A DNA stretch of 64,000 nucleotides from Planctomycetota bacterium (GTDB taxonomy: Bacteria; Planctomycetota; PUPC01; DSUN01). Below are positions 802-57,760 of the stretch, in pieces. The notes under the pieces were generated by a model that searched no databases, was not told where the DNA came from, and was given only the letters and a program-made list of their open reading frames with translations. The number at the start of each line of letters is the position of its first letter. The first letter of the stretch is position 1. Position numbers and translations under genes: made by a program. The stretch covers positions 1,047,658-1,111,657 of the forward strand of contig JBGLNR010000001.1 in NCBI GenBank assembly GCA_041320515.1, written 5' to 3'.

Positions 802-3800
802 ATGGTGAAGTGTCGTTGCATCGCAGGTGTTTTGGCTCTGGCGACCTCGATGGCCATAGCGGAGAGCGTGGCGCCCGCGCTCGTGGTGCGGGTGCGGCCC
901 GATGCGCCGAAGCCTGAAGCGCTTCGGATTACGAAACTTGTGGTCGAGGCACGCATCTTCGGGTTCATCGCCGAGACGAAGATGACGATGACCTTCTTCA
1001 ACCCCTACGAGCGGGTGCTGGAGGGCGACCTCTACTTCCCGCTGCCCGAAGGCTCGACGGTGAGCGGCTACGCGCTCGACATCGCGGGGGCGATGGTGGA
1101 CGGCGTGGCGGTGGAGAAGGAGAAGGGGCGAACGGTCTACGAGAAGATCGTCCGCCAGGGCATTGACCCCGGCCTGGTCGAGTGGACGAAGGGGAATAAC
1201 TTCAAGACCCGCGTCTTCCCCATCCCGGCCAAGGGCACGCGGACGATTCGGGTGGACACCGTCTCCGAGGTGGCCGACGACCCGAAGCTGGGTGTGCCCT
1301 GCTATCACCTGCCTCTGAACTTCAAGGACAAGGTGGACGAGGTGGCCGTCCGCGTCGACGTGGTCAAGCCGGGGGCGGCGCCGACTGTGCAGCACGGGTT
1401 CGACGACTTCAGGTTCGCCGCCTGGCAAGACGGCTTCCGGGCCGAGACGAACCTGAAGGATGCGAAGCTCGACCGCGACCTGGTGGTGGCGCTGCCCGAC
1501 GTTGCGAAGCAGAAGGTGCTGGTGGAGAAGGCGCCCGACGGGCAGGTCTACTTCTGCATCAACGACACGCCCGCCTACCCCGAGCAGGACCGGGCCAGGG
1601 CGACCGCCGCCCAGCCGGGGCGGATCGCCATTTTCTGGGACGCCTCGGCTTCGCGGGCAAAGGCCAACCACCTGCGGGAGTTCGAGCTGCTCGTCGCCTA
1701 CGTCGGCTCGCTCCGCAAGGCGCCGACGATGGACCTGGTCGTCTTCCGCAACGAGGCGGAGAAGCCGAAGCAGTTCACGAGCCTCAATGACCTGGTAACG
1801 GAGCTGAGGGGCGTGGTCTACGACGGCGGCACGCAGATCGGCAGCCTCGCGCTGCCCGCGGGCGAGCCGCCCGATCTTTGCCTCCTCTTCACCGACGGCA
1901 TTTCGAACTTCGGCAAGGAGGAGCCGGCGGGCATCAAGTGCCCCATCTACGCCTTCAACGGCGAGGCGACGGCGAACCACGCCTTCCTGCGCTCGCTGGC
2001 GCTCGCCACAGGCGGCGAGTATTTCAACCTCGCGCGCCTCGACGCCAAGGCCATCGTGCCGAGCATCGGGAACCCCGCCTTCGCCTTCCTGAGCGCGGAT
2101 GTCCCACTGGTGCCAAACCTGCGGGAGCCCAGGGACACGGGGGTGGAGGAGACCTATCCGAAGCTCTACCAGCCGGTTCACGGGCGGTTCACGCTCGTCG
2201 GCAAGCTCAAGGGCGAGACGGGCAAGGTGACGCTCGCCTATGGGACCAGCGGCAAGCCGAGCGTCCAGACGCCCTTCACGGTGTCGCGTGCCGACGCGGT
2301 GGAGGGGAATCTGCTCCGCCGCCTCTGGGCGCAGAAGAAGGTGAGCGACCTGGAGGTGTTCCCCAAGCGAAACGAGAAGGAGATCACCGAGGTTGGCAAG
2401 CAGTATGAGATTGTGACGCCCTACACCTCGCTCATCGTGCTCGACGGCCTCGAGCAATACGTCCAGCACCGCATCCTCCCGCCGAAGTCGCTCCCCAAGG
2501 TGCGCGGCCAGTACATCGAAATCGTCGAGAAGCAGCGCGTCACGGAGGAGAAGGACAAGGAGCAGAAGCTCAACGCCATCGTCGCCCTCTGGAACGAGCG
2601 GGTGAAGTGGTGGGGAACCGAGTTCAAGTACCCGAAGGGCTTCAAGTACCAGGAAGAAGCCGAGAAGAGCGTGGAAGGGCGGCCGGCCGGCGGCCGAACT
2701 GGCGGGCCGCACCCGGCGTCGCCAGCCCCCGCGGCCCGCGACCCCCGCGCGCCGGCGGCAAAGAGCGAGCCGCTCAACGACACCACCGATGCCCCCCGCG
2801 AGGCGGAGGCCGCTCAGGGCACCGTACGCGCCTACTACGGTGGCGGGCGGGCCGAGAAGAAGGACGGCGGACGAGGCGAGAGTTCCACTGCCCCCGCCAT
2901 CGCCATCAAGGCCTGGGACCCGCAGACACCCTATCTGGCCGCCCTCAAGAAGGCCAAGCCCGAAGAGGCGTTCGCCCTGTACCTCAAGCAGCGTGAGGAA
3001 TACGGAACCTCGCCCGCCTTCTTCCTCGACTGCGCGAACTACTTCCTCAGCCAGAAGCAGGAGGCGGTCGGGATCGAGGTGCTCTCGAACATCGCGGAGC
3101 TGGAGTTGGAGAGCGCCCCGCTCGTCCGCATCCTGGCCTATCGTCTGGCGCAGGCCGGCGGGGACAGGAACCTGGAGCTGAGCGCGATGCTCTTCGAGGA
3201 GGCCCTCAAACTGCGGCCCGAGGAGCCGCAGTCCTGGCGCGACCTCGCCCTCGTCCTCGCCCGCCGAGCCGAGGCCCTGAGCAAAATCCCGTACCAGCAG
3301 CGCTCGCAGGAGCAGGCCAAGCGCGACCGGGACGAGATCAATGCCCTTTACGCCCGCGCCATCGAGCTCCTCTACCACGTGGTCCTCAACCACTGGGACC
3401 GCTTCGACCAGATCGAGCTGATCGCGCTGATGGAACTCAACACCATTCTACCCAAGGCCAAGGCCGCGGGGCTGGAGAAGACCAACATTGACCCCCGTCT
3501 TGTCAAGCTCCTCGACGTGGACGTGCGAATCATCCTCACCTGGGACGCCGACAACACGGACATGGACCTCCACGTCGTCGAGCCTTCGGGCGAGCGGGCC
3601 TTCTACGGCCACCAGCGGACGACCATCGGGGGGAACGTCAGCCGCGACTTCACCCAGGGCTATGGCCCGGAGGAGTACCTCCTCCACCGCGCCATGCCGG
3701 GCATGTACACCATCCAGGCCAACTTCTACGGCAGCAACGCGACCCAGCTCCAGGGCGCCGTGACGCTCCAGGTGGACGTCTTCACCAACTACGGCCGGCC

Positions 3801-3879
3801 CAACGAGCAGCGCAAGTCGCTGACCTTGCGCCTCACCGAAAAGAAGGAAACCTTCACCGTCGGCCAGATCGAGTTCTGA
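802..3879 (+). CDS. Secreted VIT-domain protein with TPR region and C-terminal DUF2135 (YfaP-like) domain
   Basis: AGGAGG RBS; signal peptide; VIT motifs (FFNPYERVLEGDLYFPLPEGSTVSGYALD, IDPGLVEW); C-terminal LTWDADNTDMDLHVVEPSGE and DFTQGYGPEEY. Confidence 0.85.
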   Translation: MVKCRCIAGVLALATSMAIAESVAPALVVRVRPDAPKPEALRITKLVVEARIFGFIAETKMTMTFFNPYERVLEGDLYFPLPEGSTVSGYALDIAGAMVDGVAVEKEKGRTVYEKIVRQGIDPGLVEWTKGNNFKTRVFPIPAKGTRTIRVDTVSEVADDPKLGVPCYHLPLNFKDKVDEVAVRVDVVKPGAAPTVQHGFDDFRFAAWQDGFRAETNLKDAKLDRDLVVALPDVAKQKVLVEKAPDGQVYFCINDTPAYPEQDRARATAAQPGRIAIFWDASASRAKANHLREFELLVAYVGSLRKAPTMDLVVFRNEAEKPKQFTSLNDLVTELRGVVYDGGTQIGSLALPAGEPPDLCLLFTDGISNFGKEEPAGIKCPIYAFNGEATANHAFLRSLALATGGEYFNLARLDAKAIVPSIGNPAFAFLSADVPLVPNLREPRDTGVEETYPKLYQPVHGRFTLVGKLKGETGKVTLAYGTSGKPSVQTPFTVSRADAVEGNLLRRLWAQKKVSDLEVFPKRNEKEITEVGKQYEIVTPYTSLIVLDGLEQYVQHRILPPKSLPKVRGQYIEIVEKQRVTEEKDKEQKLNAIVALWNERVKWWGTEFKYPKGFKYQEEAEKSVEGRPAGGRTGGPHPASPAPAARDPRAPAAKSEPLNDTTDAPREAEAAQGTVRAYYGGGRAEKKDGGRGESSTAPAIAIKAWDPQTPYLAALKKAKPEEAFALYLKQREEYGTSPAFFLDCANYFLSQKQEAVGIEVLSNIAELELESAPLVRILAYRLAQAGGDRNLELSAMLFEEALKLRPEEPQSWRDLALVLARRAEALSKIPYQQRSQEQAKRDRDEINALYARAIELLYHVVLNHWDRFDQIELIALMELNTILPKAKAAGLEKTNIDPRLVKLLDVDVRIILTWDADNTDMDLHVVEPSGERAFYGHQRTTIGGNVSRDFTQGYGPEEYLLHRAMPGMYTIQANFYGSNATQLQGAVTLQVDVFTNYGRPNEQRKSLTLRLTEKKETFTVGQIEF

Positions 3880-4127
3880 GACGGCGGCAGTCCTGAGCCA
3901 TCGTGTCGCCGCGGGTGACGCGCCGGGTCCGTTCACCGCCGCCATTCGGACGCCGGCGGCTCGCATGAAGGCCGTGGTCGGGGCGTTCGCCGACGATAAG
4001 GTCTTCCTCCAGCGCCTTCCTAGCGATAGGTAGGTTCGCAGGAAACCGGCTGCTCGGTCGCAGTCCGTCTCGCGTTCCCTGCATTCATGGTTCCACCTCG
4101 GGTGGCCTCAAGGCATTCAAACCGCTA

Positions 4128-57303: not shown

Positions 57304-57367
57304 CTTTCCCGCGCGCGGCTCGTACAATCCAGAATGTGCCGTGAATGGAACTGGATCGGGGTAAGCA

Positions 57368-57760
57368 ATGATACAATGCGAGCTGATCAAGATCATGATC
57401 ACCGAGACGGCGGACCCGCAGGTGATCGTGCTGAAGGAGGTGGGCGGGGAGCGGGCGTTCCCGATCCTCATCGGCATCTCGGAAGCCATCGCGATTGACC
57501 GCAAGATCAAGGGCTACGAGCCCGCGCGCCCCCTCACCCACGACCTGCTGGCCAGCGTGGTCACCAGCCTGGGCGGACGGCTCGACCGCATCGAGGTCTG
57601 CGCCCTCCAGGAGAGCACCTTCTTCGCCAAGCTCATCGTCTCGCGCAACGGCGAGGTGGTCGAGGTGGACGCCCGGCCCAGCGACGCCATTGCCCTGGCC
57701 GTGCGCCTCGAAGCCCCCATCTTTGTCGCCGAGGAGGTCATCGGCGAGGTCTGCCAGTAG
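57368..57760 (+). CDS. Bifunctional nuclease family protein (DUF151)
   Basis: FPILIGISEAIAI, RPLTHDL, DARPSDAIALA. Confidence 0.9.
   Translation: MIQCELIKIMITETADPQVIVLKEVGGERAFPILIGISEAIAIDRKIKGYEPARPLTHDLLASVVTSLGGRLDRIEVCALQESTFFAKLIVSRNGEVVEVDARPSDAIALAVRLEAPIFVAEEVIGEVCQ

Follow-up and report, generated by a model that had tools for sequence, protein, structure and literature searches.

The DNA considered here, a 64-kb stretch (68% GC) of contig JBGLNR010000001.1 from the Planctomycetota bacterium assembly GCA_041320515.1, is referred to below as the window, and our subject is the degenerate palindrome RTCGAY, which has been nearly purged from most of it. A codon model trained on the window itself called about 43 genes, and some 45 open reading frames (ORFs) were annotated with Pfam, NCBIfam, PADLOC and PHROGs. 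Two resident segments flank a recently acquired defence island at 8523-16971 (8449 bp). Segment A (1-8522) encodes a VIT-domain protein, a Rieske/pyridine-nucleotide oxidoreductase and an N-terminally incomplete P-type ATPase, and it has three RTCGAY sites (637, 1354, 4410); segment B (16972-64000) encodes, among others, pfkA, ribBA, a Ser/Thr kinase, dnaK, a clpB-derived ORF, a glycosidase and proS, and has six sites in 47 kb (21144, 42528, 50702, 50735, 54478, 60701). The other 11 of the 20 sites in the window lie in the island, all between 8923 and 14179. The original prediction, made from the letters of the sequence, held that native genes avoid RTCGAY and foreign segments do not; it had noticed about ten sites at 8.9-14.2 kb and placed seven of the nine resident sites correctly to within one base, missing the GTCGAC at 54478 (the site at 637 falls just outside the range that it covered).

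The 20 sites comprise three ATCGAC, eight GTCGAT, eight GTCGAC and one ATCGAT, while sister words are plentiful in the same DNA (GTCGAG, 71; CTCGAC, 59; ATCGAG, 53; CTCGAT, 36). Markov models of order 1 to 4 predict, per strand, 26-33 GTCGAC, 30-38 ATCGAC and 30-38 GTCGAT, three to four times more than is seen. When the expectation is taken from synonymous-codon shuffles, which keep each protein and the codon usage of each gene, resident genes contain 5 RTCGAY sites where 69.1 +/- 5.3 are expected (z = -12.1), a purge of about 14-fold for resident DNA, and the two halves of the window are depleted equally. All sub-classes of the palindrome take part: GTCGAC is found 3 times against 34.0 expected, ATCGAC/GTCGAT twice against 33.1, and ATCGAT not at all against 3.0. 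Among all 2080 strand-symmetric hexamers, ATCGAC (with its complement GTCGAT) has the lowest score (z = -9.7), and the highest belongs to ATTGAC (z = +10.6). By the same shuffles YTCGAR stands at expectation (82 against 78.7) and RTCGAR/YTCGAY is enriched (224 against 175). The target of the avoidance is therefore the degenerate palindrome RTCGAY itself, and, since nearly every expected site has been lost, recognition cannot extend much beyond six bases. The avoidance by native genes that had been proposed thus holds after codon correction, including against CTCGAY and RTCGAR, the words with which the original prediction had asked that RTCGAY be compared, and both the Markov and the codon-pair analyses that it had suggested, run here on the window, show the depletion.

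At the level of codons the effect is easily seen. Resident genes write Ile-Asp with ATC twice, ATT 27 times and ATA three times, as opposed to 57 ATC and 2 other codons in Ile-Glu (P = 2e-19); Val-Asp is written with GTC twice, GTG 67 times, GTT nine times and GTA once, as opposed to 52 GTC and 23 other codons in Val-Glu (P = 3e-20). Leu (CTC) and Phe (TTC) are freely used before GAY. Of the 77 ATT codons in resident genes, 27, or about a third, precede GAC. The positions that had been listed earlier for ATT-GAC and ATA-GAC are all correct, as are those for Val-Asp with the exception of 33778, which is off by one base. Depletion is found in two reading frames, with 4 sites against 60.7 expected in the frame RTC-GAY and 1 against 8.1 in the frame xxR-TCG-AYx (for the third frame the expectation of 0.8 sites is too low to judge), so that it is a property of the DNA word, independent of reading frame, and not a codon-pair effect. 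In the xxR-TCG-AYx frame, either the codon before ends in a pyrimidine or TCC or AGC is used in place of TCG, and the site is escaped in both cases; in the R-TCG-AY context Ser is encoded by TCC 13 times, by AGC 14 times and by TCA in none of 29 cases. The replacement codons follow ordinary codon preference, as is evident from the excess of GTG over GTT in Val-Asp and from the use of TCC and AGC instead of TCA. In dnaK (30528-32495, plus strand) there is no RTCGAY site where 6.9 are expected; its six Ile-Asp pairs are without exception written ATT-GAC or ATA-GAC, and for Val-Asp the gene has GTG-GAC.

The same analysis was extended to 80 dnaK loci, at most about 22 kb in length, nearly all of them from planctomycetes. 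An exact 40-mer of dnaK had no hit in the contigs of species-representative genomes, and the source genome is therefore not one of these. The closest DnaK matches are from uncultured Planctomycetota known from metagenome-assembled genomes (MAGs), namely VGYV01000097 (L002; 94% amino acid identity in our own alignment, 91% by tblastn) and DATKZY010000030 (L003; 85% and 80%), and identity to all remaining planctomycetes is 70% or less. Among loci with at least 10 expected RTCGAY sites, the purge is common only to these two relatives and one Gemmataceae MAG (L069), with ratios of observed to expected sites of 0.07 in L002, 0.12 in L003 and 0.19 in L069; the remaining informative loci have ratios of about 0.5-1.3, mostly above 0.65. 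In all, about 75 other planctomycete loci are free of the purge. Likewise, (Ile/Val)-Asp is spelled with RTC in 0 of 33 cases in L002, 3 of 35 in L003 and 4 of 37 in L069, as opposed to 937 of 1404 in other high-GC loci. At the Ile-Asp positions of DnaK, other high-GC planctomycetes mostly have ATC-GAC or ATC-GAT, where the window, L002 and L069 have ATT or ATA.

These relatives are not recent ones. At four-fold degenerate sites of dnaK the window is 79% identical to L002 and 72% identical to L003, with saturation at 59% and 55%, respectively, which corresponds to roughly 0.7-1 substitution per synonymous site. Such a high synonymous turnover, together with an 86% preference for ATC, would have regrown the sites if the pressure had ceased, and we conclude that it continued in each branch. 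The data support an avoidance pressure that is lineage-specific and long maintained, and the suggestion that the responsible system has been long carried by its host agrees with the sharing of the purge across this distance. The Gemmataceae locus (PSKW01000001, MAG ERB_16_1) is a distant one, with synonymous sites saturated relative to the window, and is an independent case: it has 4 RTCGAY sites against 21 expected, and its Ile-Asp pairs are mostly written with ATT or ATA.

The island at 8523-16971 is the "foreign segment" of the original prediction. Its GC content (0.62-0.65) and its GC at third codon positions (GC3, 0.66-0.89) lie below those of the rest of the window, and its RTCGAY density is 1.30 per kb, as compared to 0.16 per kb outside (binomial P = 1e-5). 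Island genes show no depletion, with 7 sites where codon shuffles predict 10.3-10.5, and for seven further palindromes avoided by the host most of the copies likewise fall in the island, among them 7 of 9 GAGCTC, 2 of 3 GGGCCC, 2 of 3 CTGCAG, 3 of 4 CAGCTG and the single AGATCT. The idea that the motif marks recently acquired DNA is thus borne out for this island, which keeps both RTCGAY and other avoided palindromes; isolated single sites, however, are not judgeable one by one, as only this 8.4-kb segment is long enough for a contrast of foreign and resident DNA.

Two island proteins could be assigned to families. The first (9654-11972, minus strand; 772 aa), whose gene contains five RTCGAY and five GAGCTC sites, is a fusion of a Z1 (MzaC-like) domain with a DUF4420/MzaD-like PD-(D/E)XK domain, matching Pfam Z1 at 3e-63, DUF4420 at 1e-16 and PADLOC MzaC at 2e-66; against the NCBIfam MzaC model it scores 273 bits, with a cut-off of 1500, and matches only the C-terminal part. 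The second (12169-12984, minus strand; 271 aa, GC3 0.66) is an HNH nuclease (Pfam HNH_2; PADLOC HNH, 4e-83) that resembles, in its HNH domain alone, PDB structure 6yex (3e-15), which is the modification-dependent enzyme VcaM4I (PMC7897488). For this domain the closest known counterparts are modification-dependent HNH nucleases, and no methyltransferase gene adjoins it. Four further island proteins had no family match in Pfam, PADLOC or NCBIfam, and family scans of the island proteins detected no methyltransferase, integrase or transposase. The island shares with the Mza anti-phage system the MzaC-like Z1 domain and the MzaD-like PD-(D/E)XK domain, but differs in that these parts are fused, the MzaC part is short at the N-terminus, and scores are far below the family cut-offs; MzaA, MzaB and MzaE were not detected in the island with Pfam, PADLOC or NCBIfam.

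Proteins of the window are found, identical, in two NCBI MAGs, GCA_041308305.1 and GCA_041308325.1; the island Z1 protein and PfkA had exact matches, whereas DnaK (with the long start), the P-type ATPase and the ClpB-derived ORF had none. Two aligned short-read contigs of the former are near-identical to the window: one (L001) corresponds exactly to 8523-16971, and the other (L082) begins at 16972. Because the contigs break precisely at 8523 and at 16971/16972, the assembly graph must branch at the edges of the island, as a variable element would make it do. Each contig ends in a tail of 22-23 nt that has no match to the window, which, along with the breaks, suggests alternative junctions, i.e., an island that is present or absent, or placed differently, in the sampled population. 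We rejected an attachment site in the form of the 16-bp direct repeat at 8424-8439 and 16872-16887, as this repeat lacks extended homology and is offset from the contig edges; it is probably due to chance. Nor is the island better conserved between strains than the core genome, since 52 of the 54 core mismatches between the window and L082 are in one patch (24618-25110, within a hydrolase-like gene at 24022-25527) and the remaining core is near-identical, as is the island; the patch itself resembles a tract of recombination or a mixture of strains. The copA-like P-type ATPase (6831-8510, minus strand), which adjoins the island edge at 8523, starts 44 residues before the E1-E2 domain and is devoid of the metal-binding region and the first membrane helices; it may have been truncated by insertion of the island.

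RTCGAY is one of about eight palindromes that the host genome avoids. In resident genes, GAGCTC (2 against 38 expected), GGGCCC (0 against 27), CTGCAG (0 against 16) and CAGCTG (1 against 16) are strongly purged, CCCGGG, CGATCG and AGATCT are likewise depleted, and AGGCCT is affected more mildly (8 against 21). The profile differs among the window, L002 and L003, with the purge of GAGCTC specific to the window and that of CAGCTG shared. A profile of many palindromes is the usual footprint of a history of restriction-modification, and its differences between relatives are those that a changing set of systems would produce. Poly-C/G and CCGGA-type words are also under-represented in resident genes. 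Four CCCGGG sites are clustered at 26672-26860 despite the general avoidance of this word, and two more, along with one GGGCCC, are found at 57969-58298, just after a tRNA-Ser gene (57857-57946), in a 1.5-kb stretch that has no confident gene and may be a remnant of a tRNA-integrated element.

A small accessory toxin-antitoxin module at 49968-50980 (genes at 49968-50578, plus strand) encodes a DUF4258 toxin and an antitoxin with a YgiT-type zinc finger (GC3 0.82-0.84), and the non-coding stretch on the 3' side of these genes contains ATCGAT (50702), ATCGAC (50735), CGATCG (50733) and AGGCCT (50865). A two-gene accessory module at 52666-54587 (minus strand; GC3 0.79-0.81) encodes a DUF4276 protein and an AAA_21/AAA_15 ATPase with a weak match to the defence ATPase MADS3; the GTCGAC at 54478 is within this low-GC3 ATPase gene. 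The ORF that follows dnaK (32595-35780) matches only residues 1-409 of the 860-aa ClpB of L002 and L003. Past a break at about 33821 the reading frame continues, but the sequence is unrelated to ClpB and has an HZS_alpha-middle domain along with three haem motifs (CxxCH); no part of the window encodes the C-terminal half of ClpB. One of just two resident GAGCTC sites (33807) is found at the break, which is due either to a true fusion or deletion of genes or to a join made in assembly. The broken clpB prompted us to consider the window as a chimera of two organisms, but both halves have the same RTCGAY purge, and the finding is unaffected. Finally, there is a weak Rfam match to tRNA at 310-377 (32.9 bits), not called by ARAGORN, which could be a degenerate tRNA or a tRNA fragment.

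The specificity itself has precedents. Methylation of the form RT(m5C)GAY, where m5C is 5-methylcytosine, was found in Bifidobacterium breve by bisulfite sequencing, and RTCGAY was the most numerous methylated motif in that species (PMC5829577). The specificity is carried by M.Bbr28III, and methyltransferases 48-52% identical to it, with the motif CATCGATG, occur in Oligoflexus and in the planctomycete Anatilimnocola, the homologue from the latter being 52% identical (preprint 10.1101/2024.07.15.603628). Design of guide RNAs for B. breve UCC2003 filters out RTCGAY as a restricted site (PMC12592239). Thus, the original suggestion that this degenerate specificity lacks a well-characterised enzyme is wrong, as three sources document it in B. 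breve (PMC5829577, 10.1101/2024.07.15.603628, PMC12592239). In full-text searches, RTCGAY as the specificity of an enzyme or of methylation turned up in the B. breve paper and in papers citing the work on B. breve, but not elsewhere; other matches, judging by their titles, are apparently unrelated.

We think it probable that the purge reflects long residence, in this lineage, of an orthodox Type II restriction-modification system with RTCGAY as its recognition sequence. According to Rusinov et al. (2015, PMC4687349), such systems lead the host genome to avoid their sites, the more so the longer they have been resident, and the avoidance is able to outlast the system; we favour such a system because the pattern observed here matches that description; furthermore, one degenerate specificity of a documented kind explains the joint loss of all sub-classes of the palindrome. 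From this pattern we infer both the agent, i.e., a restriction-modification system encoded now or formerly by this genome, and the base that it would methylate. The system would consist of a separate RTCGAY endonuclease and methyltransferase, long carried by the lineage, and occasional failures of self-protection would result in selection against each unnecessary site; if the modified base is m5C, faster C-to-T decay would add to the loss. Sites in genes would be removed by synonymous change, such as ATC to ATT, GTC to GTG or TCG to TCC or AGC, or by alteration of the preceding third base. Recent arrivals, the clearest of which is the 8.4-kb island, would be too young to have been purged, and would stand out for that reason.

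Four observations weigh against this explanation. No RTCGAY methyltransferase or endonuclease is encoded within the 64-kb window: a six-frame scan for C5 and N6/N4 motifs, as well as the family searches of the annotated ORFs, found no DNA methyltransferase of any kind, and the C5 motifs (PCQ, ENV, FxGxG) are in none of the long ORFs. The island entered with its 11 sites, so that the current barrier is leaky or lost. Resident non-coding DNA is less depleted, with RTCGAY making up 4 of 21 TCGA sites as compared to 5 of 311 in genes, a difference that is not predicted by restriction avoidance in its simple form; the counts are low, however, and the mobile toxin-antitoxin module adjoins two of the four sites. 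Lastly, the analysis covers 64 kb from the genome under study and 15-22 kb per relative, and "genome-wide" is an extrapolation from these.

The purge might instead be the work of mutation only, through a solitary m5C methyltransferase that modifies RT(m5C)GAY without an accompanying endonuclease. Deamination of the methylated cytosines to thymine would then outpace their restoration, and sites would erode to RTTGAY or RTCAAY, in the manner of CpG in vertebrates. The original prediction had already held that the change of ATC to ATT fits deamination, and several facts agree with it: RTTGAY/RTCAAY is above expectation in resident genes (75 against 44.7, z = 7.2), ATTGAC is the most enriched of all hexamers, and among non-GTC Val codons GTT accounts for 9 of 77 before GAY as compared to 37 of 579 elsewhere, an approximately two-fold excess. 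The known RTCGAY methyltransferase does make m5C, and the deep conservation of the purge would be in keeping with a methyltransferase passed on vertically over a long time. However, ATT is the sole common alternative codon for Ile, and elsewhere the deamination product is not the codon of choice, since GTG by far exceeds GTT, TCA is never used, and sites are also dodged by a purine-to-pyrimidine change at the preceding third base. This argument from codon choice is not decisive, as later changes in codon preference could produce the same pattern; selection and m5C deamination are not told apart by the substitution spectrum, which either selection or codon optimisation subsequent to deamination could account for. 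B. breve, moreover, methylates RTCGAY, yet the motif is not visibly eroded there. On balance, we consider purely mutational decay unlikely.

Rather doubtful, too, is a related idea that the RTCGAY activity, instead of being a transient selfish restriction-modification system, is an m5C methyltransferase, alone or with a nuclease, that has been domesticated and is passed on vertically throughout a clade of uncultured planctomycetes at the level of a genus or family. If this were the case, the purge of coding sites and the tolerance of non-coding ones would suggest an epigenetic or regulatory role.

Several independent systems could, in principle, have acted together, for instance, a SalI-like enzyme on GTCGAC, a ClaI-like enzyme on ATCGAT, and an enzyme with an asymmetric site on ATCGAC. 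GTCGAC and ATCGAT are classical recognition sites, of SalI and ClaI, respectively, and the genome clearly has a history of many specificities. We nonetheless find such a coincidence very unlikely, because the strongest single depletion is that of the asymmetric ATCGAC/GTCGAT, the three classes are about equally depleted and have disappeared jointly in L002, L003 and L069, and the single degenerate specificity known from B. breve accounts for everything.

It is even less probable that RTCGAY is a functional signal, used by a host DNA-binding protein or other sequence-specific machinery and tolerated only where it is needed, in the way that GANTC sites of CcrM are scarcer inside genes than between them. 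The milder depletion of non-coding DNA and the deep conservation of the avoidance would be in accord with such a role, but the numbers are tiny, half of the non-coding sites are next to the toxin-antitoxin module, and just one (637) is upstream of a gene, with no positional pattern visible. The weakest proposal, that the ribosome or tRNAs disfavour the codon pairs ATC-GAC and GTC-GAC, draws on the fact that about 88% of the expected sites are in the frame RTC-GAY, but is effectively refuted by the depletion in the second frame, by the free use of CTC-GAC and TTC-GAC, by the use of ATC-GAC at the same DnaK positions in planctomycetes of the same GC content and of RTC before Asp elsewhere, and by the undepleted island genes in the same cell.

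If a Type II system is indeed the cause, these planctomycetes are predicted to encode, or to have recently encoded, an RTCGAY-specific system that is probably related to M.Bbr28III. RTCGAY, GAGCTC, GGGCCC, CTGCAG, CAGCTG, CGATCG, CCCGGG and AGATCT make up a practical set of markers for recently acquired DNA in this genome, and here the set marks out the defence island with single-nucleotide precision. As restriction specificities go, an avoidance that has lasted over about one substitution per synonymous site is a long one, and it could help in estimating the lifetimes of such systems.

The closest known counterparts are the RTCGAY systems of B. breve (M.Bbr28III, and BbrUII of strain UCC2003), which have the identical degenerate palindromic specificity and an m5C position that fits the one originally proposed for the window; the methyltransferase family of M.Bbr28III, furthermore, has one member in a planctomycete, Anatilimnocola. 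The differences are that B. breve belongs to another phylum, that RTCGAY is abundant there and nearly eliminated here, and that no gene of this family was found in the window. The sites of SalI and ClaI are subsets of RTCGAY and both are depleted, but these systems give no account of the loss of ATCGAC/GTCGAT, which is the strongest signal. Erosion of methylated sites is known from the CpG depletion of vertebrates and from the Dcm hot spots of E. coli; the window resembles these in the excess of the TG/CA product (RTTGAY) and in the replacement of ATC-GAC by ATT-GAC, and differs from them in that other replacements track codon preference.

The pattern as a whole is one of ordinary restriction-site avoidance, and avoidance of palindromes in prokaryotic genomes was reportedly described by Gelfand and Koonin in 1997 and by Rocha et al. 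in 2001. Strong, composition-corrected under-representation of a short palindrome, affecting several palindromes at once, is what we see here as well. The present case is an unusually clean and strong instance of this well-known phenomenon, with a specificity that is already documented, and it leaves the current understanding of restriction-modification biology unchanged. There is no difference in kind; what sets the window apart is the unusual strength of the depletion (about 0.07 of expectation), the degeneracy of the site, and its sharing by genomes that are about one substitution per synonymous site apart.

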